From Candidatus Omnitrophota bacterium (GTDB lineage Bacteria; Omnitrophota; Gorgyraeia; Gygaellales; JBFMHM01): a stretch of DNA of 64,000 nucleotides. The DNA lies in assembly GCA_040753015.1 (NCBI GenBank), contig JBFMHM010000003.1:218-64217 (forward strand), written 5' to 3'. Below the pieces are notes generated by a model. It was given only the letters and a program-made list of their open reading frames with translations, ran no database searches and was not told the origin of the DNA. Positions 2,222-42,126 of the stretch are shown here, piece by piece (the first letter of the stretch is position 1; each line of letters begins with the position of its first letter). The translations under genes and the position numbers were made by a program.

Positions 2222-3067
2222 TTATTGGTCATTAATTATGTATTTCTCCGCCATATATGAACTTCTAACATACGGCGAGCTTGCAACATATTTAAAGCCT
2301 AAATCTAAAGCAATTTTTCTGTAATTATTAAACTCTTCTTGGCTAATATATTCTTTCACAGGAAAATGATTTTTGCTTGGTGCTAGATATTGGCCTAAAC
2401 TTAAAAATTCACATCCTATCTTGCGTAAATCTTTTAAAACATTTATAACCTCTTCCCTTGCCTCCCCAAGCCCAAGCATAAGGCCAGATTTTGTGTGTAT
2501 TATTTCGTCTAGTATCTTTATCATCCTTAATAACTCTAGCGACCTTTTATAATCTGCATTTTCCCTAACTTGATTATATAATCGCGGCACCGTCTCTAAA
2601 TTGTGCCCGATAATTTCTGGTTTTGCATTAACAATTTTTTTGATTGCGATTTTATTTAAATTAAAGTCTGGCACCAATAATTCAATTTTTGCCGGGCTTA
2701 TTTTTCTAATTTCACCTACTGTACTAACAAAAACTTCTGCACCACCATCGTCTAAATCATCACGCGTAACAGAAGTAATTACAACATGCTTTAAGCCAAG
2801 TTTTTCTATTGCCTTAGCAATATTCTCTGGTTCACTCGGATTAATTTCTCCCGGCAACCCTTTTTTAACGCCGCAAAATTTACAATTACGAGTACAGATA
2901 TCACCCAGAATTAAAAATGTCGCGGTTTTTTTAGAAAAGCACTCTGAAATATTAGGACAAGCTGCTTCCTGGCAAACAGTATTCAATTTTAAATCCTTAA
3001 AAAGACTACTTAACTCTCTTAATTCATTGAGATTAATTTTTTTCTTTAGCCATGGCGGTTTGGGCAT
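2222..3067 (-). CDS. lipA: lipoyl synthase
   Basis: N-terminal auxiliary-cluster motif CQEAACPNISEC (Cx4Cx5C). Radical-SAM CTRNCKFC motif. 281 aa. Confidence 0.92.
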   Translation of the reverse strand: MPKPPWLKKKINLNELRELSSLFKDLKLNTVCQEAACPNISECFSKKTATFLILGDICTRNCKFCGVKKGLPGEINPSEPENIAKAIEKLGLKHVVITSVTRDDLDDGGAEVFVSTVGEIRKISPAKIELLVPDFNLNKIAIKKIVNAKPEIIGHNLETVPRLYNQVRENADYKRSLELLRMIKILDEIIHTKSGLMLGLGEAREEVINVLKDLRKIGCEFLSLGQYLAPSKNHFPVKEYISQEEFNNYRKIALDLGFKYVASSPYVRSSYMAEKYIINDQ

Positions 3068-3812
3068 ATTTTTCTTTCAATTCATCTAATAAATTAAATT
3101 CAAAATTTGTTAAATTTTCTTGGATTAATTCACAATTATGTATTTCTTCAAAACTTGCCTTAATAATTTTTTTAAGTTCGCCCAAGCTAATCGCCCGGAA
3201 TAATACATCTTTTAATGCGCATGTATTTTTATTGAAATCTATTGGTATATTTTTTAAACAAGCCAAAGCATCCTTGAAATCTAACTCTAGTGGAATCACG
3301 CCATGTTGAAAAATTAAATCATGCGATCGTTTCTGGGCATTACCGCCAATTTTTTTACCATTAATCACAATGTCGTAAAACTCTCTTCCTGCAAAACAAA
3401 AAGAATTACTACCTGTTTCTTGGCAAGAAAAATTTACACTTAAACCTAATTTTCTATAACTATGAATTAAAAATGCGCAAATTTTTTTATAGCTTTCTTT
3501 GACTTTACTATCTGCGCCAATCTCTTCTTGCCTACAAGAGATACTATACGTAAGTTCTTTGTTATGATAAATTATTCCGCCGCCTGTAAGACGCCTAACA
3601 AAATCAATTTTCCTCTTACTACATTCATCTAAATTAAATTCTTTTTCTGGTATTTGTGAATATCCAAATGAGAATGCCGCTGGCTCCCATCCATAAAACC
3701 TTAAAGTCGGGCCAACTAAATTATTTTTTCTGGCAGTAAATATTGCCTCATCAATTGCCATATTTGTATAGCAATTAGATGAGCCTGAATCAATAAATCG
3801 CCAATAAGTCAT
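3033..3812 (-). CDS. lipoate-protein ligase / octanoyltransferase family protein (LplA/LipM-type BPL_LplA_LipB domain)
   Basis: RRLTGGGIIYH motif (the lipoyl-AMP-binding RRxxGGG(A/I)(V/I)(F/Y)H signature) and N-terminus MAIDEAI.... 259 aa. Overlaps lipA by 35 nt. Confidence 0.8.
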   Translation of the reverse strand: MTYWRFIDSGSSNCYTNMAIDEAIFTARKNNLVGPTLRFYGWEPAAFSFGYSQIPEKEFNLDECSKRKIDFVRRLTGGGIIYHNKELTYSISCRQEEIGADSKVKESYKKICAFLIHSYRKLGLSVNFSCQETGSNSFCFAGREFYDIVINGKKIGGNAQKRSHDLIFQHGVIPLELDFKDALACLKNIPIDFNKNTCALKDVLFRAISLGELKKIIKASFEEIHNCELIQENLTNFEFNLLDELKEKYAQTAMAKEKN

Positions 3813-3816
3813 CGGA

Positions 3817-5214
3817 TTAGCAGTTATATTTTAATTTTAAATCTTTCACTGCTTTGGTTTCATCTAAACGACTAATAGGCGTTGTAAGCGGGGCATCTTT
3901 AATTGCTTGCGGATTAGTTTTTGCTAAATTTGCAATTTCAATCATTACTTCAATAAATTTATCCAAAGTTTCTTTCGATTCAGTTTCAGTTGGCTCGATC
4001 ATTAATGATTCTTTTACAATTAAAGGAAAGTAAACTGTCGGCGGATGTATTCCTTTGTCAATTAAATATTTTGCGATATCAATTGCATGCACGCCATTTT
4101 CTAGCTGAAAACTTGCGGAAAACACGCACTCATGCATACAAATGCGCTCATAGGGAAGCTCGTAATAATCCTTTAGTTTAACACGGATATAATTTGCATT
4201 TAAAACCGACATTTTAGCAACATCGATTAATCCTTCTTTACCCAACATTAAAATATAGGCATAAGCCTTTAAAATCACGCCAAAATTTCCGTAGAACGGC
4301 GCAACAGAGCCAATTGACCTTTTTCCGCCAGGTAAAAAATCGACTAATTTTTCGCTAACTCCAACTGGCCCCGCACCCGGCCCGCCACCACCATGAGGCG
4401 TAGCAAATGTTTTGTGTAAATTTACATGCACAACATCAAAACCCAAATCTCCGGGACGAGCAATGCCTAAAATTGCATTTAAATTTGCTCCGTCATAATA
4501 AACTAATGCGCCATTTTTATGGGCAAGGTCGGTAACTTCTTTTATCTCTGTCTCAAATAAACCCAAAGTGTTTGGGCAAGTAAGCATAACTGCCGCAGTT
4601 TCGTTATTAATATGCTTTTTATATTCCTCTAAATCAACACAACCATTTTTATTACTTGGTATAACAACGGTTTGATACCCAGCAATTGTAGAGCTAGCGG
4701 GATTAGTACCATGGGAAGAATTGGGAACAATCACATATTTTTTTCTATTCCCTTGATGTTTGTGATATGCAGCAATCAACATTAACCCAGTTAACTCGCC
4801 GTGGGCGCCGGCCATTGGCTCTAAGGTAAATGCCTTCATCCCAAGAATTTCAGATAATAATTTCTCTGTTTCAGAAATTACCGAAAATGCACCACTAGTA
4901 AATTCGCTGCCTAAAACAAGCGGTATCATCGGATGTAAATTACAAAAACCCTCTAATACGGCAACTTTTTCGCTAAATTTTGGGTTATATTTCATCGTGC
5001 AGGAACCAAGCGGATAAAAATTTGTGTCCACAGAAAAATTCATACGCGATAAATTCGTAAAATGCCGCACGCAATCTAGCTCAGAAACTTCTGGAAGATT
5101 CGGCTCTTCTTGGCGTAAATATTTTTTAGGCAGTTTATTATATCCTTCTACACCAGAAGAACTAACCTTAAACCCACACTTACCCTTTACAGATTTCTCG
5201 AAGATTAATTGCAT
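3817..5214 (-). CDS. gcvPB: glycine dehydrogenase (decarboxylating) subunit 2
   Basis: 465 aa. PLP-fold region with the HxNLHKTF motif (HVNLHKTFATPHGGGGPGAGP) typical of GcvPB. Confidence 0.92.
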   Translation of the reverse strand: MQLIFEKSVKGKCGFKVSSSGVEGYNKLPKKYLRQEEPNLPEVSELDCVRHFTNLSRMNFSVDTNFYPLGSCTMKYNPKFSEKVAVLEGFCNLHPMIPLVLGSEFTSGAFSVISETEKLLSEILGMKAFTLEPMAGAHGELTGLMLIAAYHKHQGNRKKYVIVPNSSHGTNPASSTIAGYQTVVIPSNKNGCVDLEEYKKHINNETAAVMLTCPNTLGLFETEIKEVTDLAHKNGALVYYDGANLNAILGIARPGDLGFDVVHVNLHKTFATPHGGGGPGAGPVGVSEKLVDFLPGGKRSIGSVAPFYGNFGVILKAYAYILMLGKEGLIDVAKMSVLNANYIRVKLKDYYELPYERICMHECVFSASFQLENGVHAIDIAKYLIDKGIHPPTVYFPLIVKESLMIEPTETESKETLDKFIEVMIEIANLAKTNPQAIKDAPLTTPISRLDETKAVKDLKLKYNC

Positions 5215-6517
5215 AATTTTCTATTTCTTCTTTTGTCCTTTTCTCAGTGATAGCTACAAGTAAATAATTTTCCATTCCTTTATAATATTTGCCCAAAGAT
5301 ACTCCTGCAACAAAACCTTTTTTCGCCATTTCTTTTACTACAAACTCTGCTGGCTTTGGCAAAAATACAGTGAATTCGTTAAATGTCGGAGAACTTCTCT
5401 TAACCTCAACGCCGGGAATTTTTGAAAGCTCGGTTTTTGCGAACTCCGCACGGTCAAGTAATATTTGGCATAATTTCTTTATGCCGCATTTTCCTAAAAG
5501 TGATAAATAAATTACTGCCCTAAGCGCACACAACGCTTCATTAGAACAAATATTAGAAGTTGCTTTTTCCCGTCGAATATGTTGCTCTCGGGCCTGAAGC
5601 GTTAAAACAAACCCTCGCCTACCTTGTTTATCAACAGTTTCGCCAACAATACGCCCGGGTAGCTGCCGAACATAATCTCTCTTTGTTGCTATAAATCCTA
5701 AGTATGGCCCGCCAAAAGACAAATAATTGCCTAATGACTGGCCTTCACCAGTTACAATATCTGCTTTCATTTCAGCAGGTGTTTTTAGTAAGCCTAAAGA
5801 TATTGGATAAACCGACTCAATTGCAATTGCCCCAACACTATGAACTTTCTCAATTATATCTGAGTGATCATCAATCGCTCCAAAAAAATTCGGGTTCTGT
5901 AAAATTAATGCAGCGGTTTTATCGTCTAAATATTTCAAAATTTCTTCGCGCGAGCTTTGGCCATGCACAATAGGTGTTTCAATAAATTCAATTGATAAAT
6001 TAGCGCAATATGTATACATCATTTTACGGTAAATTGGGTTTACGCCTGAAGACATAATAATTTTATTGCGCCCAGTTATGCGCAAAGACATCATTGCTGC
6101 CTCAAACAAAGCCGTACCTCCGTCGTAAAGCGAGGCATTAGTTACTTGCATGCCAGTTAGCTCACAAATACAAGTCTGGTATTCAAAAATTGCCTGTAGA
6201 GTGCCTTGAGAACATTCTGGCTGATAAGGAGTGTAAGCAGTGTAAAATTCTGCACGGCTAGTAAGGCTATCTACTACTGCTGGAATATAATGATCGTAAA
6301 AACCTGCGCCTAAAAAATTTACGAGATGAGTATTATTTTGGTCACTAAGTTTTTTTACGTACCCTACTACTTCTTGCTCGCTTTTACTATTTGGTAAATT
6401 AAAAGATTTTGCACGCAAGGCTGGCTTGATATCGCTAAATAAATCATCAATTGACTTTACACCAATTGCCTTTAGCATCTCAGCAATTTCTTCTTGCGTA
6501 TGCGGGGTATAATTCAT
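5180..6517 (-). CDS. gcvPA: glycine dehydrogenase (decarboxylating) subunit 1
   Basis: 445 aa. N-terminal MNYTPHTQEEIAEMLKAIGV... and YTPYQPE motif. Overlaps gcvPB by 35 nt. Confidence 0.92.
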   Translation of the reverse strand: MNYTPHTQEEIAEMLKAIGVKSIDDLFSDIKPALRAKSFNLPNSKSEQEVVGYVKKLSDQNNTHLVNFLGAGFYDHYIPAVVDSLTSRAEFYTAYTPYQPECSQGTLQAIFEYQTCICELTGMQVTNASLYDGGTALFEAAMMSLRITGRNKIIMSSGVNPIYRKMMYTYCANLSIEFIETPIVHGQSSREEILKYLDDKTAALILQNPNFFGAIDDHSDIIEKVHSVGAIAIESVYPISLGLLKTPAEMKADIVTGEGQSLGNYLSFGGPYLGFIATKRDYVRQLPGRIVGETVDKQGRRGFVLTLQAREQHIRREKATSNICSNEALCALRAVIYLSLLGKCGIKKLCQILLDRAEFAKTELSKIPGVEVKRSSPTFNEFTVFLPKPAEFVVKEMAKKGFVAGVSLGKYYKGMENYLLVAITEKRTKEEIENYAINLREICKG

Positions 6518-6901
6518 TTACAAAGTTTTTAAATATTCTCTATAGTTATCTGCGGGCATTAAGTTATTTTTTTCGGCTAAATCCGTTAATTCTATAACAC
6601 AAAACCAACCATTCTCATATGGCGACTTATTAATTGTTTCTGGGGTGTTTTTCAAGGCATCATTTACCTTAACAATTTTTCCTGACATTGGCGCATAAAC
6701 ATCTGAAGCTGCTTTTACCGACTCAACAGTTGCAATAATATCGCCTTTTTTATATAAATTGCCTATTTTGGGCAATTCAATAAAAGTAACATCACCAAGG
6801 GCTTCTTGTGCATGATTAGTTATTCCCATTGTACCAACATTACCTTCAATCTTTATCCATTCGTGATCTTTTGTGTAAAATAGACTATCTAAAACACTCA
6901 T
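6518..6901 (-). CDS. gcvH: glycine cleavage system H protein
   Basis: 127 aa. Lipoyl-lysine motif ESVKAASDVYAPMSG. Confidence 0.92.
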   Translation of the reverse strand: MSVLDSLFYTKDHEWIKIEGNVGTMGITNHAQEALGDVTFIELPKIGNLYKKGDIIATVESVKAASDVYAPMSGKIVKVNDALKNTPETINKSPYENGWFCVIELTDLAEKNNLMPADNYREYLKTL

Positions 6902-6910
6902 TACTTCCTC

Positions 6911-8011
6911 CTAATTTTTGAGCGAGCCGTTTTTATAAAATGGCCTATCGACAATTCTTGCTGCGATCTCAACATTTGTATCTTTTAAAATAATTTTGGT
7001 TTCTGATTTTGTAAAGCTATTTTTTGCAAAACCTATACCAAGACCAACGCCTAAGCTAGGCGAAAAGCTTCCGCTTGTAACAATCCCTATCTGTTGATTA
7101 TCTAAAGAATAAATTTTATAATTATGCCTCGGGGTACGGCGCGAATTACAGGTAAAAAATATCCGTCTTCGGCTAAAATCATCTTTAGCTTTTTCTAAAG
7201 CGCCCTCTCCGATAAAACCATTGTCAGATGTAATAAAATTTTCTAGTCCTGCCTCAATAGGGTTTATTGATTCATCCATATCTTGCCCATATAAAGGGTA
7301 ACCCATCTCAATCCTAAGTGTATCTCTTGCTCCAAGGCCGGCTGGCTTAATATCTGAATCGGCTAAAAATATATTCCATAATTCTGTTACTTTGTCCATT
7401 GAAATATAAATTTCATATCCTAATTCGCCTGTATAACCCGTACGACTGATAATACATTTTTCTCCTAGCAATTCAAAATAATCAAAAGTATAGTATTTAA
7501 GCTTTTCTATTTGCGCCCCAACAATTTTTTTCATAACATCTTTTGACTTAGGGCCTTGGATATCCAGTTTCCCGGTTTCTCCCGAAATATTTACGAAATT
7601 CTTCTCTTTATAAAGATGCCTTTTAATATGTGTAAAATCTTTGTCGCCAGTTGCAGCATTAACCACAATCATAAATTTATCTTGCCTAATCTTATAAATA
7701 ATTAAATCATCCATAATGCCGCCTCTTTCGTTAAGCATTAAGGTATAACGGCAGGAATTTAACGGCATTTTATCAAAGGAAAGAGGCAATACTTTATCTA
7801 AACCACAGCCTAAAGGATCATCCTCAAATATAAATTCGCCCATATGACAAATATCAAATACCGATGCTTGTGTACGCGTCCAATTATGCTCAGCAATTAT
7901 ACCTTCATATTGAATCGGCATCAGCCATCCGCCAAAACTAGCCATCTTTGCACCAAGCCTTTTATGTTCACTGGCAAGGGGCGTTTGTTTTAAATTATCT
8001 ATTTTTTCCAT
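6911..8011 (-). CDS. gcvT: aminomethyltransferase (glycine cleavage T protein)
   Basis: 366 aa. TPLASEHKRLGAKMASFGGWLMPIQY N-terminus typical of GcvT. Confidence 0.92.
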   Translation of the reverse strand: MEKIDNLKQTPLASEHKRLGAKMASFGGWLMPIQYEGIIAEHNWTRTQASVFDICHMGEFIFEDDPLGCGLDKVLPLSFDKMPLNSCRYTLMLNERGGIMDDLIIYKIRQDKFMIVVNAATGDKDFTHIKRHLYKEKNFVNISGETGKLDIQGPKSKDVMKKIVGAQIEKLKYYTFDYFELLGEKCIISRTGYTGELGYEIYISMDKVTELWNIFLADSDIKPAGLGARDTLRIEMGYPLYGQDMDESINPIEAGLENFITSDNGFIGEGALEKAKDDFSRRRIFFTCNSRRTPRHNYKIYSLDNQQIGIVTSGSFSPSLGVGLGIGFAKNSFTKSETKIILKDTNVEIAARIVDRPFYKNGSLKN

Positions 8012-32097: not shown

Positions 32098-34641
32098 TTA
32101 AGCATCTAGCCAATTTTTGCCGATTTTGATATCAATCTTTATCGGTACATCTAATTTAAAAACATTTTCCATTCTATCTCTGGCAATTCTTTTAACTAAA
32201 TCTAGTTCCTTATTATTAACTTCAAATAATAATTCATCGTGAATCTGTAGAATCATTTTTGATAATAGCTGCTCTTTATCAAACTCTTTATCGATATTAA
32301 TCATTGCTATTTTTATGATATCAGCGCTTGACCCCTGTATAGGGCTGTTAATTGCCTGGCGCTGGCTAAACTCACGCAAGCTCTTATTTTGACTATTGAT
32401 TTCGCGAATAAATCTTTTTCTTCCAAAAATAGTTGTAACAAACCCATTGTTTTTCGCAAACTCAATCTGTTTTTCTATAAATTCTTTAACACCATTATAT
32501 TTTATAAAATAAGTATCAATAAAACTTTGCGCAGCATCTTGATTAATTTCTAAATCCTGGCTTAAACCATAAGCACTCATACCATAAACAATTGCAAAAT
32601 TTATTCTTTTTGCAACATTTCTCATATCAGCAGTTATATTTTTTTTATCTACGCCATAAATAAGGCCGGCTGTATGTAAATGAACATCCTCACCATTTTT
32701 GAATGCCTGGGTTAATTCTTTATCCTTGGACATATGGGCCAAAATTCTTAATTCTATCTGCGAATAATCACAAGATACTATAAAATCTTCTTTATTTTTA
32801 GGAACAAATGCCTTCCTTAACTGACTTGAAATATCGGTCTTAATTGGAATATTTTGCAAATTAGGATTATTCATACTTAAACGCCCTGTTTCTGTGCCAA
32901 CCTGGTTAAAATATGCATGTATCCTATTTGTATTTTTATCAACAAGTTCTGGCAAAGAATCAATGTAACCCGTTTTTAGCTTAATCAGATGCCGATATTC
33001 TAATATTAATTTTGCGATTTTATAGTCTTTACTTAACTGTTTCAATACAAACTCATTTGTAGAAGGCCCCGTTTTACCCCGCTTGATTACCGGAAGACCT
33101 AACTCCTGAAACAATATTACCGCAAGCTGTTTTGGTGAATTTAAATTAAATTTCTTGCTAGCATTAGTAAAAATTTCATTCTCTAACCCATTAATTTTAT
33201 ATTCGATATCTTTTGATAAACTATTTATTAATTTTAAATCTAAAGCTATACCATTTATTTCCATTTTTGCAAGAATTTTGACTAGCGGCATCTCAATATC
33301 ATAAAATAAAGACTCCATATTGTTTTCTTCTATTTTTTTTCTTAAAACTTCATAGAGGCGGGCGATTAAAACTAGATTTTTCTCTGGACTGGCGTTTCTA
33401 ACCGTTAACCCTAAATAATCATAAATTAAACCCCCGAGGCTAAAATCTGTCTTCGATGAATCAATCAAGTAAGCCGCAATCATTACATCGAAAATTTTAC
33501 CATTAATATTAAATTTAAGCTTGTTGGAAACTTTGAATTCTTGCTTTAAATCAAATCCTATCTTGTTAATATCTACATTCTCAAATAATGATTTCAATCT
33601 TTCAGGGCTATCTGTTTTAAAAATATTATTTTCATCAATAAAAGTATAAAAATTATAATTACTATCGTTATCCGGTGTAGATATAAAAATAAGCTCTCTT
33701 AATTTATCATAACCTTTAGTTGATTCCTTATTTACCGCAATATTTAAATTACTTAATTCATCATCTTTTATAGGAAGATCTTTTAAAAAAGTTCTAAATT
33801 CAAGCTCTTTGTAAATATCGAAAAGTTCTTTATAATTGGGCGTTTTTAGTTCTAGGTCTCTTAAATTAAAATCTAAAGGCACACAATCTTCTAATTCTAC
33901 CAATTCTCTGCTTAAATTTAAAATATTAGTATCTTTTTTAATCAGATCTGCAACTCTCTGGGGTTTTAAAGAATCAATATTTTCAAGCAAGTTTTCTATA
34001 TTATCATATTGTTTAATTAACGAAATAGCTGTTTTTTCTCCAATACCTTTGACGCCTGGAATATTATCGGTTGCATCACCCATAAGCGCAATAACCTCTG
34101 GTATCAGTTTTGGCGAAACGCCAAATCTATTTAAAACTTCCTTTTCATCGTATAGGATATTTTTTTCTTTATGAGGAATTATTATACTGACTTTTGAAGA
34201 GATTAATTGTAATAAATCTTTATCTGCTGTCAGAATTTTAACATTAAGGCCTTCTTCAACGGATTTTTTACATAATGTAGCAATTAAATCATCTGCCTCG
34301 TAACCTTGGTATTCAAAAATTGAGATATTAAAAGCGGCCAAAATCTTTTTAATAATTGTTAATTGATTTACTAAATCATCGGGCATTTTTGGACGCTGAA
34401 TTTTATAATCTGAAAACTTTCTCTGCCTAAATGTATCTCGTGAAACATCAAAACAAGCTGCAATATAACCATATTTTCCACCTTCCAAGAACTTATTCAA
34501 CATATTAACAAAACCATATATTGCACCTGTTGGCATACCCTTAGTATTCGTCAATGCGGGCAAAGCAAAAAAAGCCCTATAACATAAGGCATTAGCATCA
34601 ATAATAAATAGATCAGAATGTTTTTCTTTAGCTGTAAGCAT
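32098..34641 (-). CDS. polA: DNA polymerase I
   Basis: N-terminal 5'-3' exonuclease/FEN region, and the C-terminal family-A polymerase motifs RRxAKxxNFGxxYG-like (RNVAKRINFAIVYG) and HDE (QIHDELLFE). 847 aa. Confidence 0.92.
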   Translation of the reverse strand: MLTAKEKHSDLFIIDANALCYRAFFALPALTNTKGMPTGAIYGFVNMLNKFLEGGKYGYIAACFDVSRDTFRQRKFSDYKIQRPKMPDDLVNQLTIIKKILAAFNISIFEYQGYEADDLIATLCKKSVEEGLNVKILTADKDLLQLISSKVSIIIPHKEKNILYDEKEVLNRFGVSPKLIPEVIALMGDATDNIPGVKGIGEKTAISLIKQYDNIENLLENIDSLKPQRVADLIKKDTNILNLSRELVELEDCVPLDFNLRDLELKTPNYKELFDIYKELEFRTFLKDLPIKDDELSNLNIAVNKESTKGYDKLRELIFISTPDNDSNYNFYTFIDENNIFKTDSPERLKSLFENVDINKIGFDLKQEFKVSNKLKFNINGKIFDVMIAAYLIDSSKTDFSLGGLIYDYLGLTVRNASPEKNLVLIARLYEVLRKKIEENNMESLFYDIEMPLVKILAKMEINGIALDLKLINSLSKDIEYKINGLENEIFTNASKKFNLNSPKQLAVILFQELGLPVIKRGKTGPSTNEFVLKQLSKDYKIAKLILEYRHLIKLKTGYIDSLPELVDKNTNRIHAYFNQVGTETGRLSMNNPNLQNIPIKTDISSQLRKAFVPKNKEDFIVSCDYSQIELRILAHMSKDKELTQAFKNGEDVHLHTAGLIYGVDKKNITADMRNVAKRINFAIVYGMSAYGLSQDLEINQDAAQSFIDTYFIKYNGVKEFIEKQIEFAKNNGFVTTIFGRKRFIREINSQNKSLREFSQRQAINSPIQGSSADIIKIAMINIDKEFDKEQLLSKMILQIHDELLFEVNNKELDLVKRIARDRMENVFKLDVPIKIDIKIGKNWLDA

Positions 34642-34695: not shown

Positions 34696-35406
34696 TTACA
34701 TTAATAATTTTTTCTGTGTAGCTCTTAATAAATCTTGCGCCTCTTGATTGTATGGATCTACCTCCATAACTTTAACAAGTTCATTAAAGGCGGGCACATA
34801 ATCTCCTTTATAATAAAGCGCCTTTGCATGCATAAGAGTATTTTTCTGGTGAGTTTTCTCTTGCACAGCTTCAACTTGTTTTTGTTTTATCAAATCTGCC
34901 GTTAATGCTAGCGATTCCTGCTCAACTAATTCTTGTTTAACTGAAGGACAGACCTCTGCGATTTTATAGAGTCTTTCTTGCGCTTTATATGTCCATGGAT
35001 CAGCTGGATTGCCTAATTTTATTCTTAATTTTAAATAATATGCGGCTTGCTCATATTCACCTTTTCTTTCATAAATACTCGCCATATTAGAATAAGCGCT
35101 TAAACAAGCAGGATCAATTTCTATAGCCTTCATATATACGGATTCTGCGCGGTCGTACATCCCCTTGGCCTCATAAATAACGCCTAAATCATTGTAAGCT
35201 GTCGTAAAATAGGGATCTAGCTCTATTGCCTTTTGATAATAAGTCATTGCTAAATTAGCGTCGCCGCTTGATTGCGCCTGCAACCCTAAATCCCTATACG
35301 TTTTAGCATCTTGAGTTAAATCTAAGGCAAAACTTAAAGAAATATTTGTAGAAACAAATACAAAAATAAATAACATTAAACTTATATATTTCTTTAAAAA
35401 TTTCAT
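34696..35406 (-). CDS. tetratricopeptide-repeat protein with signal peptide
   Basis: N-terminal signal peptide, then repeated AxxYxxLGxxYxxxGxYxxA TPR-like units. 236 aa. Confidence 0.65.
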   Translation of the reverse strand: MKFLKKYISLMLFIFVFVSTNISLSFALDLTQDAKTYRDLGLQAQSSGDANLAMTYYQKAIELDPYFTTAYNDLGVIYEAKGMYDRAESVYMKAIEIDPACLSAYSNMASIYERKGEYEQAAYYLKLRIKLGNPADPWTYKAQERLYKIAEVCPSVKQELVEQESLALTADLIKQKQVEAVQEKTHQKNTLMHAKALYYKGDYVPAFNELVKVMEVDPYNQEAQDLLRATQKKLLM

Positions 35407-35480: not shown

Positions 35481-36683
35481 CTAATTTTGATCAAAAATTG
35501 TATTTTTTATATTTGATATATCTTGTTTTTCTTTTAACAATTTTAATATATTATCTTTATTAATTAAATCGCCTATAAGAACCGCGCCAACGATTTTATT
35601 ATCTTGTATTATAATTCTTTTATAAATAGAATTTTTATTATCAATCAATTTGCTTTCTTCTAATCCTGATTCTAAATTAAATTTACCCAAAGAGACGATT
35701 CCTAATCCTAATAGATTTAACATTTTTATATTTATAAATCCTTCATATTTTATCGGATTTTCCACAATATTCTCTCCGACAATTTCTCCTTGGCTCAAGG
35801 CGCCCTGCCAGTCATAATTTATATCGTATTTATTCAAAATAAAATTGTAGGCCTCACAGGCCTGCCCAGCTGCATAGATACCAGGAATATTTGTTTTAAA
35901 ATTTTCATCGACAGTAATACCTTTATTTATTTTTATAGAAGTATCCTTTATAAAATTAAGGTTGGGAATACTCCCTTTAGCTATTAAAATTAAAGAGCTT
36001 GAGATAACTTTACCTGATTCAAGCTTTATTGCCCGAGCTTCTTGCTCTCCAATAATCTCGATAACATCCTGGTCAAAAATAAACCTTACTCCAAAATCAT
36101 CCAAATGTCTTTTAATTATAGATGAGGCATATTCATCTAAATAACTAGATAAAGCAAATTTTGATTTTGTTACTACTGTTACATCGAGGTTTCTTTTTCT
36201 GAAACTAACCGCTGCACGAAGGCCAATACTTCCTGAACCAATTATACAAACATCTGATACAACGGGAATTATCTGTAAAATCTTATCTATATCTTCTAAA
36301 GACCTAATCTCAAATACACCATATTTATATGTACCTTTTATTTCTGGAATCTTATTTGTTGCACCGCTAGCTATAAGCAAAATATCATAATCTATATTCG
36401 ACTTATCATCTAGAAAAACTATCTTTTTTTTCTCATTAATCCTTGTAACACTTTTCTCAGAAATAAATTCAATATTATTATCTAAATAAAAATTATTATT
36501 TAAGTAAAATAAGTCGTCTTTTTTTATTTCGCCTGCAAGATAATCTAATAAACGCGGCTTTAAATAAGGAAAATGCTTTTCCTGAGAAATAACTGTGATA
36601 GTAGAACTGGAATCTTTCTTTCGGATAGTTTGAGCAGCGCGAACACCGCTTGCAGAATTACCTATAATGACTATTTTTTTCAT
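35481..36683 (-). CDS. FAD-dependent pyridine nucleotide-disulfide oxidoreductase family flavoprotein (no redox-active CxxxxC seen)
   Basis: Two dinucleotide-binding motifs (IVIIGNSASG and VCIIGSGSIGLRAA). 400 aa. Its stop overlaps the metF-like start (ATGA). Confidence 0.75.
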   Translation of the reverse strand: MKKIVIIGNSASGVRAAQTIRKKDSSSTITVISQEKHFPYLKPRLLDYLAGEIKKDDLFYLNNNFYLDNNIEFISEKSVTRINEKKKIVFLDDKSNIDYDILLIASGATNKIPEIKGTYKYGVFEIRSLEDIDKILQIIPVVSDVCIIGSGSIGLRAAVSFRKRNLDVTVVTKSKFALSSYLDEYASSIIKRHLDDFGVRFIFDQDVIEIIGEQEARAIKLESGKVISSSLILIAKGSIPNLNFIKDTSIKINKGITVDENFKTNIPGIYAAGQACEAYNFILNKYDINYDWQGALSQGEIVGENIVENPIKYEGFINIKMLNLLGLGIVSLGKFNLESGLEESKLIDNKNSIYKRIIIQDNKIVGAVLIGDLINKDNILKLLKEKQDISNIKNTIFDQN

Positions 36684-37549
36684 AATTCTGATTTAGCCAA
36701 TATCTCTGGTATGAATCTCGACCAACCTAATGGCATTATATGAATACCTGCTACCATGGACCGGATTTGCTGTATCGTTTCTGAAGCAATCCTAACACAT
36801 TCTGCATGTTTGTCTTTTGCCTGATTCATCCTTTTGATCAATTCTTCAGGCACAAAAATTCCGGGTATATTTTTATTCATATAATCGGCCATCTTAGATG
36901 ACTTAATTAAAATTATCCCTCCTAGAATAATTGTTTTAATATGTGAAATTTTTTTCATAAAAACTTCGAATCTCCTTAGATCAAATATCCCCTGTGTTTG
37001 GAAAAATTGTGCGCCACAGGCAATTTTTTTTTCCATTTTTATAATTTCTGGTTCGATTGGATCGCAAAAAGGATTAACCACTGCTCCAATGCAAAACTTA
37101 GGAGCAGGACCTTCTAATTTATTTCCTTCCATATCAACACCCTTTTCAAGAGTCTTAACGATATTCAAGAGCTGCACTGAATCAACATCAAAAACTGGTT
37201 TTGCACTAGGATGATCCCCCAGCTTCGGATGATCTCCGGTTAAAACTAGAATATTCTCGATACCAAATAACGCGGCAGATAATATATCTGATTGAAGCGC
37301 AATTCTATTTCTGTCGCGGCAAATAAGCTGATAGATTGGCTCATACCCTTTTTGTTTTAATGCTATACTTACTGCCAAAGACCCGAGCCTCATCACTGAA
37401 CTCTGTGATTCAGTTATATTTATAGCGTCAACTTTCTGGTTTAAAAAATTTAATTCGCTAAAAACACCTGTTAAATCAATGCCCTTTGGTGGGCCAATCT
37501 CTGAAGTAATAATAAATTTTTTATCTTGGATTTTTTCTTTTAATGTCAT
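36680..37549 (-). CDS. metF: methylenetetrahydrofolate reductase
   Basis: 289-aa MTHFR TIM-barrel pattern (ITSEIGPPKG..., LVLTGDHP). Lies between the flavoprotein and folD. Confidence 0.82.
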   Translation of the reverse strand: MTLKEKIQDKKFIITSEIGPPKGIDLTGVFSELNFLNQKVDAINITESQSSVMRLGSLAVSIALKQKGYEPIYQLICRDRNRIALQSDILSAALFGIENILVLTGDHPKLGDHPSAKPVFDVDSVQLLNIVKTLEKGVDMEGNKLEGPAPKFCIGAVVNPFCDPIEPEIIKMEKKIACGAQFFQTQGIFDLRRFEVFMKKISHIKTIILGGIILIKSSKMADYMNKNIPGIFVPEELIKRMNQAKDKHAECVRIASETIQQIRSMVAGIHIMPLGWSRFIPEILAKSEL

Positions 37550-38409
37550 TTTTCTTGCACCCTATATGCGCTTACTACATTTTTCATTAATATTGCTGTT
37601 GTCAACGGGCCAACCCCGCCAGGAACAGGCGTTATGAATGAGGCCTTTTTAATAGCTTCGCTAAAGTCAATATCGCCTACAAGTCTATCACCTACCCTGC
37701 TAATACCAACATCTACTACAACCGCCGCCTTTTTTATCCAATCCGACTTGATTAAATTAGGTTTACCTACTGCAGAAATTAAAATATCGGCTTCTTTAGT
37801 ATGAGAAATTAATTTTCCAGCTTCATATGTTGCGATATGGCATACTGTTACTGTCGCAAATTCTTTCAGCAAAAGTAAAACGAGTGGTTTGCCTACAATT
37901 TCGCTTGAACCGACAATAACAACCTCTTTACCATATAAACCAATGTTATAATTCTTTAATATTTCTATAATTGCCTGTGGCGCACAAGGAGAAAAACGTG
38001 GTTTGCCTAGGGTTAAAAAACCGAGATTCTCTGGATGCATACCCTCAACATCTTTCTCTGGATTAATCTTATAAATCAATTCCTGATAATTTATGTTTTT
38101 TGGGACTGGTGCAATAATAATTATTCCTGTAATCTTTTTATCTTTATTTAAATCATAAATTGTCGAAACAACCTCTGCTTCCTTTACGCTATCAGCCAAT
38201 TTATAATGCAAATATTGTATGCCAATATTTTCGGCAAATTTTTTCTGAGCATTTATATAAACAGATGCGCCCTGATTATCCCCAACTTGAATTGCAGCCA
38301 AATTAGGCAAAAAATCTTTATCTTGTTTAATCCTAGCAATCTCTACGGTAAGCTCTTTTTTTATTTTATCGGCCAGAGGCCTTCCCTCTAAGAGCACTGA
38401 CTGCATCAT
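37546..38409 (-). CDS. folD: bifunctional methylene-THF dehydrogenase / methenyl-THF cyclohydrolase
   Basis: 287 aa. LAAIQVGDN..., GKPL (VGKPLVLLLL) and PVPGGVGPLT motifs. Confidence 0.92.
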   Translation of the reverse strand: MMQSVLLEGRPLADKIKKELTVEIARIKQDKDFLPNLAAIQVGDNQGASVYINAQKKFAENIGIQYLHYKLADSVKEAEVVSTIYDLNKDKKITGIIIIAPVPKNINYQELIYKINPEKDVEGMHPENLGFLTLGKPRFSPCAPQAIIEILKNYNIGLYGKEVVIVGSSEIVGKPLVLLLLKEFATVTVCHIATYEAGKLISHTKEADILISAVGKPNLIKSDWIKKAAVVVDVGISRVGDRLVGDIDFSEAIKKASFITPVPGGVGPLTTAILMKNVVSAYRVQEK

Positions 38410-38881
38410 TATTCTCCTTCATAAAAAGATTTGCGCTTTTAAAAGCAGCCTCTAATAAATATACTCCCGCCTCTAAATCACTTATTAAATAAAAATTTGA
38501 CACCTTAACTAATTGCCTGGCTAGAGCTATAGCATTGTAACAATTCTGACAAATTATATTACTAATATTTACACACTCTTCATAAGCTTTAATTTTTACC
38601 CCATTATCCAAATTCCTCGCTAAAACAACAAGATTATATGCCTCGGTATCTAAAAAAACTAAGAGTTTAAGATTATTTCGTATATTCTCTAGATCCTCTA
38701 AAATTTTTTTTGTTTTACTCCTGGTGTCTTTAAATTTTTTTCCTGTGCTAAAAAGACCCACCATACAAAGTAAACCTGTACCAAGACATCCAGCTAAAGC
38801 GCTAGCTGATCCACCGCCGGGCGTAGGCAAAGACGATGCTAAGTCATCCAAATATTTATTAAGCAATAAGTTTTTTTTCAT
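38366..38881 (-). CDS. fchA: cyclodeaminase/cyclohydrolase family protein (FTCD C-terminal domain-like methenyl-THF cyclohydrolase)
   Basis: 171 aa. SLPTPGGGSASALAGCLG motif, characteristic of the formiminotransferase-cyclodeaminase C-domain family. Confidence 0.8.
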   Translation of the reverse strand: MKKNLLLNKYLDDLASSLPTPGGGSASALAGCLGTGLLCMVGLFSTGKKFKDTRSKTKKILEDLENIRNNLKLLVFLDTEAYNLVVLARNLDNGVKIKAYEECVNISNIICQNCYNAIALARQLVKVSNFYLISDLEAGVYLLEAAFKSANLFMKENNDAVSALRGKASGR

Positions 38882-40527
38882 GACAATCCCTGTATCGTGC
38901 CATTATCATCTATATCAATTTTTTCAGCTTGAGGATTCTTTGGAAGCCCTGGCATCGTAAGAATATCCCCTAGTATCGCAGTAATAAACCTTGCCCCTGA
39001 ATTTATATGCAAATCTTTTATTGGAATAATAAAATCCTTTGGCCTGCCTTTTAAGATCGGATTATGTGATAAAGAAAATTGGGTTTTCGCCATACAAATA
39101 GGTAATTTATCAAAACCTTCTCTTTTATACAACAATATTTTTTTAAAAGCCTCATCTGAAATTTCTATATCTTTTGCGCCATAAATTTTAGTTGCAATCT
39201 TTCGCATCTTATCTTCGATAGAACTATCTAAAGAGTAAAGAAATTTAAATTCGTTTTTCTGATTCACTGCTTTTATGACTGCTTTTGCTAGATTGACTCC
39301 GCCTAAAGAACCATGATTATACATTGTTGATACAATACAATCAAATGCACCGAAATCTTTAGCCTTATTTTTAATTAAAGCTATTTCCTTATCGCTATCT
39401 TGATCGAACTTATTAATTACAACGATAGCCGGCAAGCCAAAAATTTTAATATTTTCAATCTGTTTTTCTAAGTTTACACAGCCCTCTTCAAGCGCTATTA
39501 AATCCTCCTTTAATAACCTATCATCATTATAATCTCTAAATCTGTTAGAATGTAATTTTAAAGCCCTGACTGTGCAAACAAGGACAACTGCATTTGGAAT
39601 CAATCCACTATAGCGGCATTTTATATTAAAAAATTTCTCTGCGCCACAGTCAGCGCCAAAACCAGCTTCGGTAACAACATAATTAGATAATTTAAGAGCA
39701 ATTTTATCAGCGATAATTGAGCTATTACCATGCGCAATATTTGCAAATGGTCCAGTATGTGCAAAACAAGGAGTATTTTCCTTAGTTTGTATTAAATTTG
39801 GTAAAATTGTATACTTTAAAAGCGCTGCCATTGCGCCTGTCACTTTTAGCTCCTTACTCTTTATAAATTTTCCATTCTTATTTTGAGCAACAATGATATC
39901 ATCTAAAGAATCGTGAAGCTCTTTTCTTGAATTTACTAAAGCCATGATTGCCATTAGCTCTGAACTAGGTGTTAGCTCAAAACCACTTTGATAAGAATAA
40001 TTCTTTGTCTCTATTTTTATATTGCGAAGAGATCTGTCAATTAGATCAGATACACGCCGTAAGAATATTTTTTGACAATCAATATTTAATGGATTGTTTC
40101 GATATAACGAGTTATCTATAAAAGATGCACATAAATTATGAGCTAACTCAATAGCAGTAAAATCTCCTAAGAAATTAAAACAAAAATCGTCTAAAGGAAT
40201 AATCTGACACTTGCCACCACCAGATGCTCCTTTTATACCAAATAACGGCCCCAAAGAAGGCTGCCTTATGCAAGCGAATGATTTTTTGCCTAGTCTATTT
40301 AAAGACATAGATAAGCCAAGGGTAGTTACGGTTTTTCCTTCACCTAAAGGAGTAGGAGTAATGCCAGTTACTAAAATATATTTTGAATTTTTATTTCTGG
40401 ATGGATTATCAAGACGTTTTAGGATAGAAATATCTACCTTGGCAATATAATTGCCAAATAGTTTAAGCTCGTGTTTTTTTATGCCAAATTTCGCGGCAAT
40501 TTTTTCGATCGGCAGGATTCTTCCCAT
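38878..40527 (-). CDS. fhs: formate--tetrahydrofolate ligase
   Basis: 549 aa. PTPLGEGKTVTTLGL P-loop region typical of FTHFS. Confidence 0.92.
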   Translation of the reverse strand: MGRILPIEKIAAKFGIKKHELKLFGNYIAKVDISILKRLDNPSRNKNSKYILVTGITPTPLGEGKTVTTLGLSMSLNRLGKKSFACIRQPSLGPLFGIKGASGGGKCQIIPLDDFCFNFLGDFTAIELAHNLCASFIDNSLYRNNPLNIDCQKIFLRRVSDLIDRSLRNIKIETKNYSYQSGFELTPSSELMAIMALVNSRKELHDSLDDIIVAQNKNGKFIKSKELKVTGAMAALLKYTILPNLIQTKENTPCFAHTGPFANIAHGNSSIIADKIALKLSNYVVTEAGFGADCGAEKFFNIKCRYSGLIPNAVVLVCTVRALKLHSNRFRDYNDDRLLKEDLIALEEGCVNLEKQIENIKIFGLPAIVVINKFDQDSDKEIALIKNKAKDFGAFDCIVSTMYNHGSLGGVNLAKAVIKAVNQKNEFKFLYSLDSSIEDKMRKIATKIYGAKDIEISDEAFKKILLYKREGFDKLPICMAKTQFSLSHNPILKGRPKDFIIPIKDLHINSGARFITAILGDILTMPGLPKNPQAEKIDIDDNGTIQGLS

Positions 40528-40529
40528 TA

Positions 40530-41108
40530 TTATTCTATAAACGTTTTTCTATGAATTGGGCATGGGCCGAATTTTTTCAAATACTTAAAATGCTCTTTAG
40601 TACCATAGCCCTTATTTTTATTAAAATTATAGTTAGGATAAATCTTATGATAAATATTCATAATCCTATCACGGTATACCTTAGCAATAATTGAAGCGCA
40701 GGCAATAGATAAACTTTTTGTGTCACCTTTTATAATTTTTTTTAGTGGATGCTCTAGGTTCAAATCAATATTACCATCAATTAATAAATAATCTGGCTTT
40801 GTTTTTAAATTCAAAACAGCTAATTCAAACGCTTTTTTTGTCGCTTTCAAAATATTAATTGCATCAATGATAGTTTCATTAACAATACCAAAAGCAAAAC
40901 TAGTTTTCTCAACTATCTCAAAGAACGCTTCTTCCCTTTGATGAGCACTAAGGCATTTAGAATCATAAATCCTATGCTTAAATTTCTTTTCTTTTAATAT
41001 AACTGCAGCTGTTACTACCGGGCCAGATAAAGCACCTCTGCCTACTTCGTCAAGGCCGCAAATAACATTATAGCCATTTTTGATAGCCTTTGACTCATAG
41101 TAAAACAC
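40530..41108 (-). CDS. rnhB: ribonuclease HII
   Basis: GLDEVGRGAL active-site motif. 192 aa. Confidence 0.9.
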   Translation of the reverse strand: MFYYESKAIKNGYNVICGLDEVGRGALSGPVVTAAVILKEKKFKHRIYDSKCLSAHQREEAFFEIVEKTSFAFGIVNETIIDAINILKATKKAFELAVLNLKTKPDYLLIDGNIDLNLEHPLKKIIKGDTKSLSIACASIIAKVYRDRIMNIYHKIYPNYNFNKNKGYGTKEHFKYLKKFGPCPIHRKTFIE

Positions 41109-41452
41109 TAAATGCCTTCTATTTTACTCGCCTTCTGACTCACTGTTTTGCGTAAATAATATAACTTAGACCTCTTAACTCTACCCTTTTTCACAATCTC
41201 AATTGAGTCGACATTTGGAGAATTAACTGGAAAAACACGCTCAACACCCTCTCCATAAGATACCTTGCGAACAGTTATAGAAGTTTTAATCCCCATGCCA
41301 TTTTTTGCAATAATTAAACCTTCGAAAGGCTGCAACCTATATTTATCTTCGGCTTCTTTCAACCTAACTAAAACTCTTACTTGATCTCCAACTTTAAAAT
41401 CTGGCAATTCTTTTTTTATCAAATCTTTCTCAATTTCTCTAATTTTTTGCAT
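41108..41452 (-). CDS. rplS: 50S ribosomal protein L19
   Basis: 114 aa. [10 protein letters not shown] motif. Downstream of trmD as in the conserved operon. Confidence 0.9.
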
Positions 41453-42126
41453 TTTTTACCTCCGTTCAATAAATCCGGCCTTATTTGTTTTGTCTTTTTT
41501 AAAGATTGAATCTTCCGCCATTGCTCAATTTGTTTATGGTCTCCTGATAAAAGGATCTTTGGAACCTTCAAACCACGAAAATTAGCTGGGCGGGTATATT
41601 GAGGATACTCGAGTAGATTAGCGCAAAATGATTCAAATGTCAATGATTCATTTCTACCAACTACACCCTTAATTAACCTTGCCACAGCATCAACAATAAC
41701 CAACGATGGTATCTCTCCCCCAGTCAATACATAATCACCAATTGATATTTCTTCATCAATAATCGCTTTAACGCGCTCATCCACTCCTTCGTAATGCCCG
41801 CAAATTAAAATCAAGTGCCTGTATTTTGATAGGCGCATAGCCTCTTTCTGGTTAAAAAGCCTGCCAGAAGCTGACAGCAGTATTACTCTGGTATTTTTTT
41901 TACGCAGAGTACTAACTGCGCGAAAGATTGGCTCTGCACAAAATACCATTCCCGGCCCTCCGCCAAACGGCCTATCATCAACTTTTTTATGCTTATCAAG
42001 AGTATAATCCCTTAAATTATGAACCTTAATAGAAACTATACCTTTCTTTTGCGCACGTCCAAGTATCGACTCGCTAATAATTGGCTCTAAGCTTTTTGGA
42101 AAAATAGTTATGATATCAAATTTCAT
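41419..42126 (-). CDS. trmD: tRNA (guanine37-N1)-methyltransferase
   Basis: [11 protein letters not shown]-terminus and SPOUT knot region. 235 aa. Confidence 0.9.

Follow-up and report, generated by a model that had tools for sequence, protein, structure and literature searches.

A probable methyl-branch remnant of a Wood-Ljungdahl operon with an orphaned FNOR-type flavoprotein next to metF in an Omnitrophota genome

The 64-kb stretch of contig JBFMHM010000003.1 of a Candidatus Omnitrophota bacterium that we analyzed (hereafter, the window, to which all absences given below refer unless another scope is named) contains a block of five genes on the minus strand that encode four enzymes of tetrahydrofolate (THF)-linked one-carbon (C1) metabolism and a flavoprotein. 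The first gene of the block, fhs (40527..38878; formate-tetrahydrofolate ligase, 549 amino acids (aa)), starts 2 nucleotides (nt) after rnhB and is followed by fchA (38881..38366; FTCD_C-type methenyl-THF cyclohydrolase, 171 aa, annotated by NCBI as 'cyclodeaminase/cyclohydrolase family protein', MEW5758549.1), folD (38409..37546; bifunctional methylene-THF dehydrogenase/methenyl-THF cyclohydrolase, 287 aa), metF (37549..36680; methylene-THF reductase (MTHFR), 289 aa) and, as the last gene, an FNOR-type FAD/NAD(P)-dependent oxidoreductase (36683..35481; 400 aa, MEW5758546.1). On the left, the block is tightly packed against trmD-rplS-rnhB (40530..42126, minus strand, identified from the open reading frames (ORFs) and Pfam RNase_HII), so that the order of transcription, trmD-rplS-rnhB-fhs-fchA-folD-metF-flavoprotein, is unbroken. 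On the right, it is followed by the minus-strand genes for a TPR protein (34696..35406), with a signal-like N-terminus and matches to Pfam TPR families, and for PolA (32098..34641, identified from the ORF and its translation); these flanking genes served as synteny anchors. A Pfam survey shows that the remaining genes of the window are housekeeping genes. As argued below, this block is probably the folate/methyl half of an Omnitrophota Wood-Ljungdahl operon from which the carbonyl genes were deleted, leaving the FNOR orphaned beside metF.

An earlier note on this DNA, made from the sequence alone, described the five genes as contiguous and co-directional, which holds for all the ORFs and their unambiguous Pfam families. 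It also placed the flavoprotein upstream of metF, with an ATGA overlap. The stop codon of metF and the start codon of the flavoprotein gene indeed share ATGA, a 4-nt overlap, but by transcription the flavoprotein gene lies downstream. The same 4-nt overlap is present at fhs/fchA and folD/metF and, altogether, start and stop codons overlap in this manner in 16 of the 57 adjacent co-directional gene pairs in the window, including such unrelated pairs as tsaB/alr, glgA/coaE and purA/hppA. The ATGA overlap is thus generic in the window and does not single out metF and the flavoprotein gene as partners, so that we rejected translational coupling as an argument. A promoter and terminator scan yielded counts at the level of shuffled sequence and gave no operon boundary.

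The origin of the block is indicated by synteny. The nearest homologs of the flavoprotein (37–47% identity) all come from Omnitrophota, and all five of those whose context was examined are embedded in the order fhs-fchA-folD-metF-[cooC]-cooS-cooF-FNOR-acsB-TPR-polA; another 26 or so loci in Omnitrophota genomes have the identical order. The flanks match as well: in one of the relatives (L008), trmD-rplS-rnhB precedes fhs, as in the window, and TPR-polA pairs homologous to the pair in the window follow acsB in L001, L003, L005, L097, L103 and others, with PolA 43–52% identical to that encoded at the equivalent site. At one and the same chromosomal site, then, the relatives have metF-[cooC]-cooS-cooF-FNOR-acsB-TPR-polA and the window has metF-FNOR-TPR-polA, which points to a deletion of cooS, cooF and acsB. 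A homology search and a Pfam survey found no trace of cooS, cooF, cooC or acsB in the window, and the carbonyl branch as a whole (CO dehydrogenase (CODH) cooS/acsA, acsB, the corrinoid Fe-S protein genes acsCD, and acsE) is not represented there. A scan of 185,579 species genomes with the flavoprotein yielded 80 loci, among which a CooF-like gene lies upstream of the FNOR gene within 1.5 kb in 71 and within 300 nt in 64; directly upstream of the flavoprotein in the window, there is no CooF-like polyferredoxin but metF instead. The CooF-FNOR loci span Bacillota, Methanomassiliicoccales, Anaerolineae and other groups. A CooS match within 10 kb was found in 33 of the 80 loci, and many CooF-FNOR pairs outside Omnitrophota come without one. 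Relatives closer to the window are scarce: a single-sequence metagenome scan found none, a scan with a MetF profile reached 64–67% identity at best, and the only closer one is L090, a 1.5-kb contig from run SRR16108674 with a MetF that is 80% identical. The CooS-CooF-FNOR (COG1251) cluster is recognized in the literature, where the FNOR is thought to connect CO oxidation with NAD(P)+ (PMC6344411, PMC4703632, PMC13000667), and partial, variable Wood-Ljungdahl pathways have already been described in Omnitrophota (PMC10066038).

The identities of the folate enzymes are clear. Fhs matches Pfam FTHFS (E=1e-215) and the NCBIfam model PRK13505 (670 bits, above the cutoff of 652) and is 55–59% identical to Fhs of the syntenic Omnitrophota operons; it begins about 12 residues into the Pfam model. 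FchA matches Pfam FTCD_C (E=7e-31) and scores 76 bits with the NCBIfam FchA model, below the cutoff of 275; its 171 aa, against 186–203 aa in the relatives, make it the shortest seen. FolD matches THF_DHG_CYH and THF_DHG_CYH_C (E=4e-62) and scores about 300 bits with the NCBIfam FolD models. The methyl branch of the Wood-Ljungdahl operon (fhs, fchA/folD, metF) is therefore complete here and syntenic with complete operons in the relatives, and the gene identities and formate-to-methyl-THF logic of the earlier note are correct by Pfam and NCBIfam. The co-occurrence of FolD and FchA, which the note took for a redundancy, is the normal pairing in Wood-Ljungdahl operons. When distances to other Omnitrophota are expressed as a ratio, the C1 enzymes of the window (1.5–2.1) are disproportionately diverged compared to PolA (1.19); this divergence, together with the short FchA, may reflect constraints that changed after the loss of CODH and acetyl-CoA synthase (CODH/ACS).

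MetF, which is 100% identical to the NCBI Omnitrophota metagenome-assembled genome (MAG) protein P0039, matches Pfam MTHFR (E=1e-32) and, among curated models, scores best with the MTHFR half of the YitJ-type PRK08645 (255 bits). The equivalogs of the Escherichia coli type score far lower, with 66 bits for TIGR00676 (cutoff 294) and 21 bits for PRK09432 (cutoff 382), and a profile search of PDB retrieves known MTHFRs only at about 1e-7. The AlphaFold2 (AF2) model (pLDDT 85) nevertheless superimposes by Foldseek on the MTHFR barrels of Thermus thermophilus (1V93) and E. coli (1B5T) with TM of about 0.8, and the catalytic residues align, the SEIGPP, LTGDHP and QTQ segments corresponding to Glu28, Asp120 and Gln183, whereas the NADH-stacking Phe223 of the E. 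coli enzyme aligns to a gap or Ser. No MetV, RnfC2 or Hdr gene lies beside metF, either in the window or in any relative examined. Judged by sequence, this MetF belongs to a MetV-less clade, found mainly in Omnitrophota, that is remote from the type I enzymes, and it cannot be assigned to any of the acetogen MTHFR types II–IV (PMC8760232). NADH shares the folate site in these enzymes, and there is no separate motif by which NADH dependence could be typed from sequence.

The flavoprotein combines Pfam Pyr_redox_2 (5e-48) and Rubredoxin_C (6e-14). Its best NCBIfam models are the PadH epsilon subunit and the N-terminus of NirB, both below cutoff; its top sequence matches in PDB are the NROR-type proteins 1xhc and 3klj (E of about 1e-33), with AorC (8c0z_E) also strong. 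The AF2 model (pLDDT 93) shows a three-domain fold that, over its full length, is structurally most similar to AorC (8c0z_E; TM 0.92/0.87, rmsd 2.4 Å). We conclude that it is a member of the CooF-associated FAD/NAD(P) oxidoreductase family 'FNOR' (COG1251), related to NirB, NROR, PadH and AorC. Both dinucleotide motifs of the GxGxxG type and the C-terminal domain are intact. The protein has no CxxxxC disulfide and carries Pro ('LKPRLL') where NADH oxidase (Nox), CoA-disulfide reductase (CoADR) and most of its own relatives have the active Cys, which bears out the remark in the earlier note on the lack of an obvious redox-active disulfide; CoADR models score 127–162 bits, far below their cutoffs of 394–579. 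An identity as CoADR, NADH oxidase or Lpd is accordingly rejected, and the classification with hidden Markov models that the note suggested leads to PadH epsilon and the NirB N-terminus as the nearest, sub-cutoff, families. Several features of the family have been lost: the protein ends about 20 residues earlier than its relatives, without their C-terminal tail, GD (the FAD-ribitol Asp) is replaced by GQ, and the WP (WPxA), MNS and (C/P)LISY motifs are gone. In a neighbor-joining tree, the flavoprotein falls beside the Omnitrophota FNOR clade and groups with the homologs from L058 and L079; this grouping may be due to long-branch attraction because FolD and FchA of these two loci are not closer to those of the window and the indels of their flavoproteins are absent from it. 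An apparent absence of the gene from a protein database, which could have suggested a pseudogene, proved to be a clustering artifact, and NCBI annotates the gene as MEW5758546.1. In that collection of 5.8 billion protein sequences, the 90%-identity cluster of the flavoprotein has as its representative a 54-aa fragment from TARA contigs that is unrelated to it, so that MEW5758546.1 is invisible to homology searches of it.

A metagenome scan centered on MetF yielded 64 informative loci that show what can happen downstream of metF. In 18 loci, metF is followed by cooC or cooS, and in 2 by cooF; a flavoprotein homolog comes directly next in 15; acsB comes next in others, directly in 8 and past a gap of 360–506 nt in 15; one locus has a 113-aa remnant and then the TPR gene; and 5 have unrelated genes, for example, the nearest outgroup of the MetF of the window, L170 (folD-metF-panB). 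The direct junction of metF with the flavoprotein gene occurs only where cooS and cooF are gone. All 11 complete metF-adjacent flavoproteins in these loci are short (289–335 aa), lack the C-terminal domain and have an internal deletion and degenerate NAD motifs, so that they cannot serve as NAD(P)H input modules. The loci thus form a series of losses downstream of metF, from an FNOR of about 420 aa to the short forms of 289–335 aa, a remnant of about 130 aa or the 113-aa ORF and, finally, nothing. On the MetF tree, operons of the different types are intermingled, which implies that the loss of cooS and cooF and the shrinkage of the flavoprotein happened repeatedly. The short forms remain under purifying selection, with dN/dS of about 0.07 between L103 and L108 and, at saturated dS, dN of 0.2–0.4.

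These loci have further features of their own. The short forms (L103:8867-9736, L108:8867-9736, L095, L121, L123, L131, L132, L146, L147, L157 and L104) sit between metF and acsB in cooS-less Omnitrophota operons, and 8 of the 11 have a conserved C-terminal motif of the Cys-Gln type (CQQTS, CQRTS). At L094:8928-11357 and L097:8974-11550, AcsB is extended at its N-terminus by about 130 aa that are homologous to FNOR residues 110–236 (NAD domain), and at L100:7978-8319, the corresponding FNOR piece is a free 113-aa ORF, with acsB gone; both types of remnants match the type-A FNOR at E of about 1e-10. The fusion hints that the FNOR physically associates with AcsB. Among the AcsB matches in L093–L162, those from cooS-less operons are 55–60% identical to the AcsB of L003 and those from cooS-containing operons 69–75%, although MetF trees intermingle the two operon types; this split could result either from faster evolution after the loss of the CODH partner or from a separate history of acsB. 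In two other Omnitrophota loci, L058 and L079, an FNOR-like gene follows folD without cooF and without metF as a neighbor, and both proteins share several of the motif losses of the window flavoprotein (WP, MNS, LISY). In L058 (115-5936; Omnitrophota MAG STD1_12), the order is fchA-folD-FNOR-like flavoprotein-210-aa ORF-short metH; the flavoprotein gene (421 aa) overlaps the folD stop, the 800-aa MetH lacks the activation domain, and the 210-aa ORF weakly matches the Met_synt_B12 activation domain (E=0.005). From its position beside an apparent split MetH reactivation module, one may suspect that this flavoprotein acts as a reductase in corrinoid reactivation.

The orphaned flavoprotein of the window probably is still functional. 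It retains the type-A architecture, with both dinucleotide motifs and the C-terminal domain, and its fold is predicted with confidence (pLDDT 93, TM 0.92 to AorC). The 400-codon ORF is intact in a region of 31–34% G+C (genome, about 33%), where stop codons arise easily. L090 retains the 4-nt overlap of metF and the flavoprotein gene, and the first 19 codons of the latter are 79% identical to those in the window, while dS between the two metF genes is about 1.5, a distance at which an untended 1.2-kb ORF would not be expected to survive with its junction and N-terminus preserved. The distance ratio of the flavoprotein (1.46) is below those of Fhs, FolD and MetF (1.7–2.1) and above that of PolA (1.19), and conserved sites are violated only modestly more often than in other proteins, so that accelerated decay relative to the neighboring genes is not supported.

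Taken together, these observations suggest the following scenario for the block. Going by family membership, Fhs would ligate formate to THF with ATP, FchA and FolD would form methenyl-THF, FolD would reduce it to methylene-THF with NAD(P)H, and MetF would convert the latter to methyl-THF. In the relatives, the FNOR would use its FAD to shuttle electrons between NAD(P)(H) and the polyferredoxin CooF, a role suggested by homology to NROR, AorC and PadH and by the model in the literature. Deletion of cooC/cooS/cooF and of acsB would then have left the flavoprotein abutting metF as a by-product, the acsB deletion probably also clipping its last 20 or so codons. The orphaned protein appears to be under selection, probably as an NAD(P)H-dependent flavoenzyme; possible electron acceptors are ferredoxin- or rubredoxin-type proteins, or CooF-like ones, with genes in other parts of the genome. 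In the absence of CODH/ACS at the locus, methyl-THF would most likely feed methionine synthesis, and the block probably interconverts formate and C1-THF, tied to glycine via the glycine cleavage system. Several points weigh against this scenario. CODH/ACS and CooF could be encoded outside the 64-kb window, on the rest of the 169.5-kb contig or elsewhere in the genome, which would imply relocation rather than loss. Several lineages have retained FNOR-like genes beside folate genes (L090, L058, L079, L104 and those with the short forms), a hint of some tie to C1 metabolism for which the scenario does not account. Evidence of selection in the lineage of the window comes from 19 codons of a single 1.5-kb contig. 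The flavoprotein deviates at 21 of the 76 columns with conservation of 95% or more among its orthologs, a rate (0.28) above that of every other protein tested (0.12–0.22); since one of these deviations affects the FAD-ribitol Asp (GD to GQ), its activity is not assured. Finally, even for canonical FNORs, a 2019 survey reports no biochemistry (PMC6344411).

One of the other explanations, proposed in the earlier note, is that the flavoprotein oxidizes NAD(P)H and feeds the electrons to the MetV-less MetF; the two would then make a new two-subunit methylene-THF reductase, with the flavoprotein in the role that RnfC2/MetV or Hdr partners have in acetogens. The junction and its 4-nt overlap persist in L090, where MetF is 80% identical, a flavoprotein homolog directly follows metF in 15 of the 64 loci and is kept by purifying selection in its short forms, the MetF clade is remote from the NADH-dependent type I and lacks both MetV and the Phe223-aligned residue, and both dinucleotide motifs are retained in the window flavoprotein. 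However, cooS-cooF separates metF from the flavoprotein gene in the nearest relatives, where the conserved neighbors of the latter are cooF and acsB rather than metF, which argues against an obligate partnership; 23 of the 64 loci have no separate flavoprotein gene after metF and 5 more have unrelated neighbors there; the short metF-adjacent forms, with their degenerate NAD motifs, cannot deliver electrons from NAD(P)H; where a remnant is fused, its fusion partner is AcsB and not MetF; in L058 and L079, the flavoprotein gene adjoins folD with no metF between them; no Fe-S mediator is encoded in the window, and all characterized relatives in the family dock Fe-S proteins or rubredoxin; and the ATGA overlap is commonplace in this genome. 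The adjacency is thus inconsistent among relatives, in which orthologous MetF occurs next to a full, crippled or fragmentary FNOR or without any, which indicates that MetF does not depend on the flavoprotein. The family also has another clear assignment, so that the evidence goes, in large part, the way that the note said would refute the partnership. The direct junction does recur, in the 15 loci and in L090, but we consider the partnership improbable. Even less likely is an extension of this idea, under which the Omnitrophota FNOR belongs to the methyl branch and not to CO oxidation, its FAD splitting NAD(P)H electrons between MetF and, via CooF, CooS, with the window copy reduced to a simple input subunit of MetF; if true, this would couple exergonic methylene-THF reduction to endergonic CO2 reduction in the long-sought bifurcating methylene-THF reductase, and the window FNOR with the MetV-less MetF would make a fifth MTHFR type. 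The flavoprotein could also be a dispensable relic of CODH/ACS that is heading to decay and is transcribed only thanks to its position in the operon. This would agree with the graded losses at this locus in sister lineages, with the missing C-terminal tail, GD, WP and MNS motifs and with the top rate of conserved-site violation, but not with the intact ORF in A+T-rich DNA, the conservation of the junction and N-terminus across dS of about 1.5, a divergence no greater than that of MetF, FolD and Fhs, the confidently predicted three-domain fold, or the purifying selection that acts even on the short forms elsewhere, so that we regard decay as unlikely. Relocation of CODH/ACS, with the flavoprotein still serving CooF and CooS encoded elsewhere, is compatible with the 64 kb of DNA inspected and with the existence of split arrangements, given the CooS match within 10 kb in just 33 of the 80 FNOR loci. 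Nevertheless, the loss of WP, MNS and LISY in the window flavoprotein and in L058 and L079, and of the tail in the former, fits the loss of a partner, and in Omnitrophota relatives, cooF, when present, is always directly upstream; relocation, too, thus seems improbable.

The remaining alternative involves the glycine cleavage genes, which lie about 27 kb away on the minus strand (2222..8011) along with the lipoylation genes, as the earlier note had observed: gcvT (8011..6911; Pfam GCV_T), gcvH (6901..6518; GCV_H), gcvPA and gcvPB (6517..5180 and 5214..3817; GDC-P, GcvP2_C), an LplA-type ligase (3812..3033; LplA-B_cat) and LipA (3067..2222; TIGR00510, 349 bits, above the cutoff of 310). Under this alternative, Fhs, FchA and FolD run, together with GcvTHP, the reductive glycine pathway for assimilation of formate or CO2, in place of the acetyl-CoA route. 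All these genes, including those for LplA and LipA, are indeed found within one 64-kb stretch from which CODH/ACS is gone at the ancestral site, and the two pathways share the first four reactions, with each kept or lost independently across lineages (PMC7547702, PMC7132306, PMC12827605). The pathway, however, requires formate dehydrogenase (FDH), Fhs, FolD/FchA, the T, H, P and L proteins, followed by either glycine reductase or serine hydroxymethyltransferase with serine deaminase (PMC7547702). No L-protein gene adjoins the glycine cleavage cluster, and the Pfam survey of the window found no gene for L-protein, FDH, GlyA, serine deaminase, glycine reductase, MetH or a corrinoid protein. Given these absences and the position of MetF outside the route, the 'full gene set' of the reductive glycine pathway announced in the earlier note is an overstatement, although Fhs, FolD/FchA, GcvTHP and the lipoylation genes are all in place. 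Furthermore, the glycine cleavage system is a common catabolic system, and a distance of 27 kb provides no linkage. Omnitrophota are mostly heterotrophs or fermenters with reduced genomes (PMC10066038), for which maintenance of the C1 pool or catabolism of glycine and serine to formate would be simpler explanations. With nothing in the window speaking specifically for it, we consider a reductive glycine pathway rather unlikely.

Comparison with known systems places the locus closest to the CooS-CooF-FNOR clusters of Geobacter sulfurreducens (GSU2098-2095), Carboxydothermus hydrogenoformans (CODH-IV, CHY0735-0738), Clostridium ljungdahlii and C. autoethanogenum. The window flavoprotein shares with these the COG1251-type architecture of Pyr_redox_2 and Rubredoxin_C with FAD and NAD(P) motifs, and its nearest relatives carry this exact gene order; it differs in that cooS, cooF and cooC are missing from the window and that the protein has lost its C-terminal tail and several family motifs. 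In Omnitrophota, moreover, the FNOR module forms part of the Wood-Ljungdahl operon and immediately precedes acsB, unlike the other CooS-CooF-FNOR clusters. AorC, the FAD subunit of the tungsten aldehyde oxidoreductase AorABC (PDB 8C0Z), and PadH, the epsilon subunit of phenylglyoxylate:NAD+ oxidoreductase, respectively, the best structural match and the best NCBIfam model, are both FAD subunits through which NAD and a polyferredoxin subunit exchange electrons, but identity is only about 24%, the scores are below the family cutoffs, and neither an aldehyde oxidoreductase nor a Pad catalytic or Fe-S subunit is encoded near the window flavoprotein. The NRORs of C. acetobutylicum (3KLJ) and Pyrococcus furiosus (1XHC) likewise have three domains and Pro in place of Cys at the Nox/CoADR active-site position; they keep the GD motif where the window flavoprotein has GQ. 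There is no rubredoxin gene among the annotated genes of the window, small ORFs not having been scanned.

At the level of operons, the window shares the fhs-fchA-folD-metF order and the FchA/FolD pairing with the acetogen operons fhs-fchA-folD-metV-metF (PMC8760232) but lacks MetV, RnfC2 and HdrCBA/MvhD. With the partial pathway of the Velamenicoccus archaeovorus type, which lacks FDH, AcsA and CooS/F (PMC10066038), it has in common the phylum and the operon backbone, and the CooS-less loci found here fit such partial pathways described in Omnitrophota; in contrast to the V. archaeovorus type, the window locus also lacks acsB, yet keeps a near full-length FNOR. The reductive glycine pathways of Desulfovibrio desulfuricans G11 (PMC7547702) and Clostridium drakei (PMC7132306) share Fhs, FchA/FolD and GcvTHP with the window; they differ in FDH, L-protein and a glycine outlet (Grd or GlyA with Sda), none of which is seen in the window, and MetF and the flavoprotein play no part in them.

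Elsewhere in the window, there are two paralogous AAA_14/DUF4143 ATPase genes (12378-13673 and 42148-43329), one of them wedged between trmD and tgt, with a perfect 12/12 match to a sigma-70-like promoter at 43373-43346. A minus-strand ORF of 371 aa (651-1766) matches nothing in Pfam or NCBIfam, even at E=1.

Which electron donor methylene-THF reductase uses is an unsettled question in Wood-Ljungdahl energetics, so that a new flavoprotein partner would matter. Inasmuch as the juxtaposition of metF and the flavoprotein gene is, most likely, an accident of gene loss, the locus should not be cited as a new type of MTHFR or as a reductive glycine module. What is new here is the series of losses at one locus, the fusion of an FNOR remnant with AcsB, and the question of the reductant of the MetV-less MetF clade. 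A single conserved site in Omnitrophota genomes appears to record the repeated dismantling of CODH/ACS, with the FNOR left whole, shortened, fused to AcsB or erased, and this series represents a natural experiment on the interaction partners of the FNOR.

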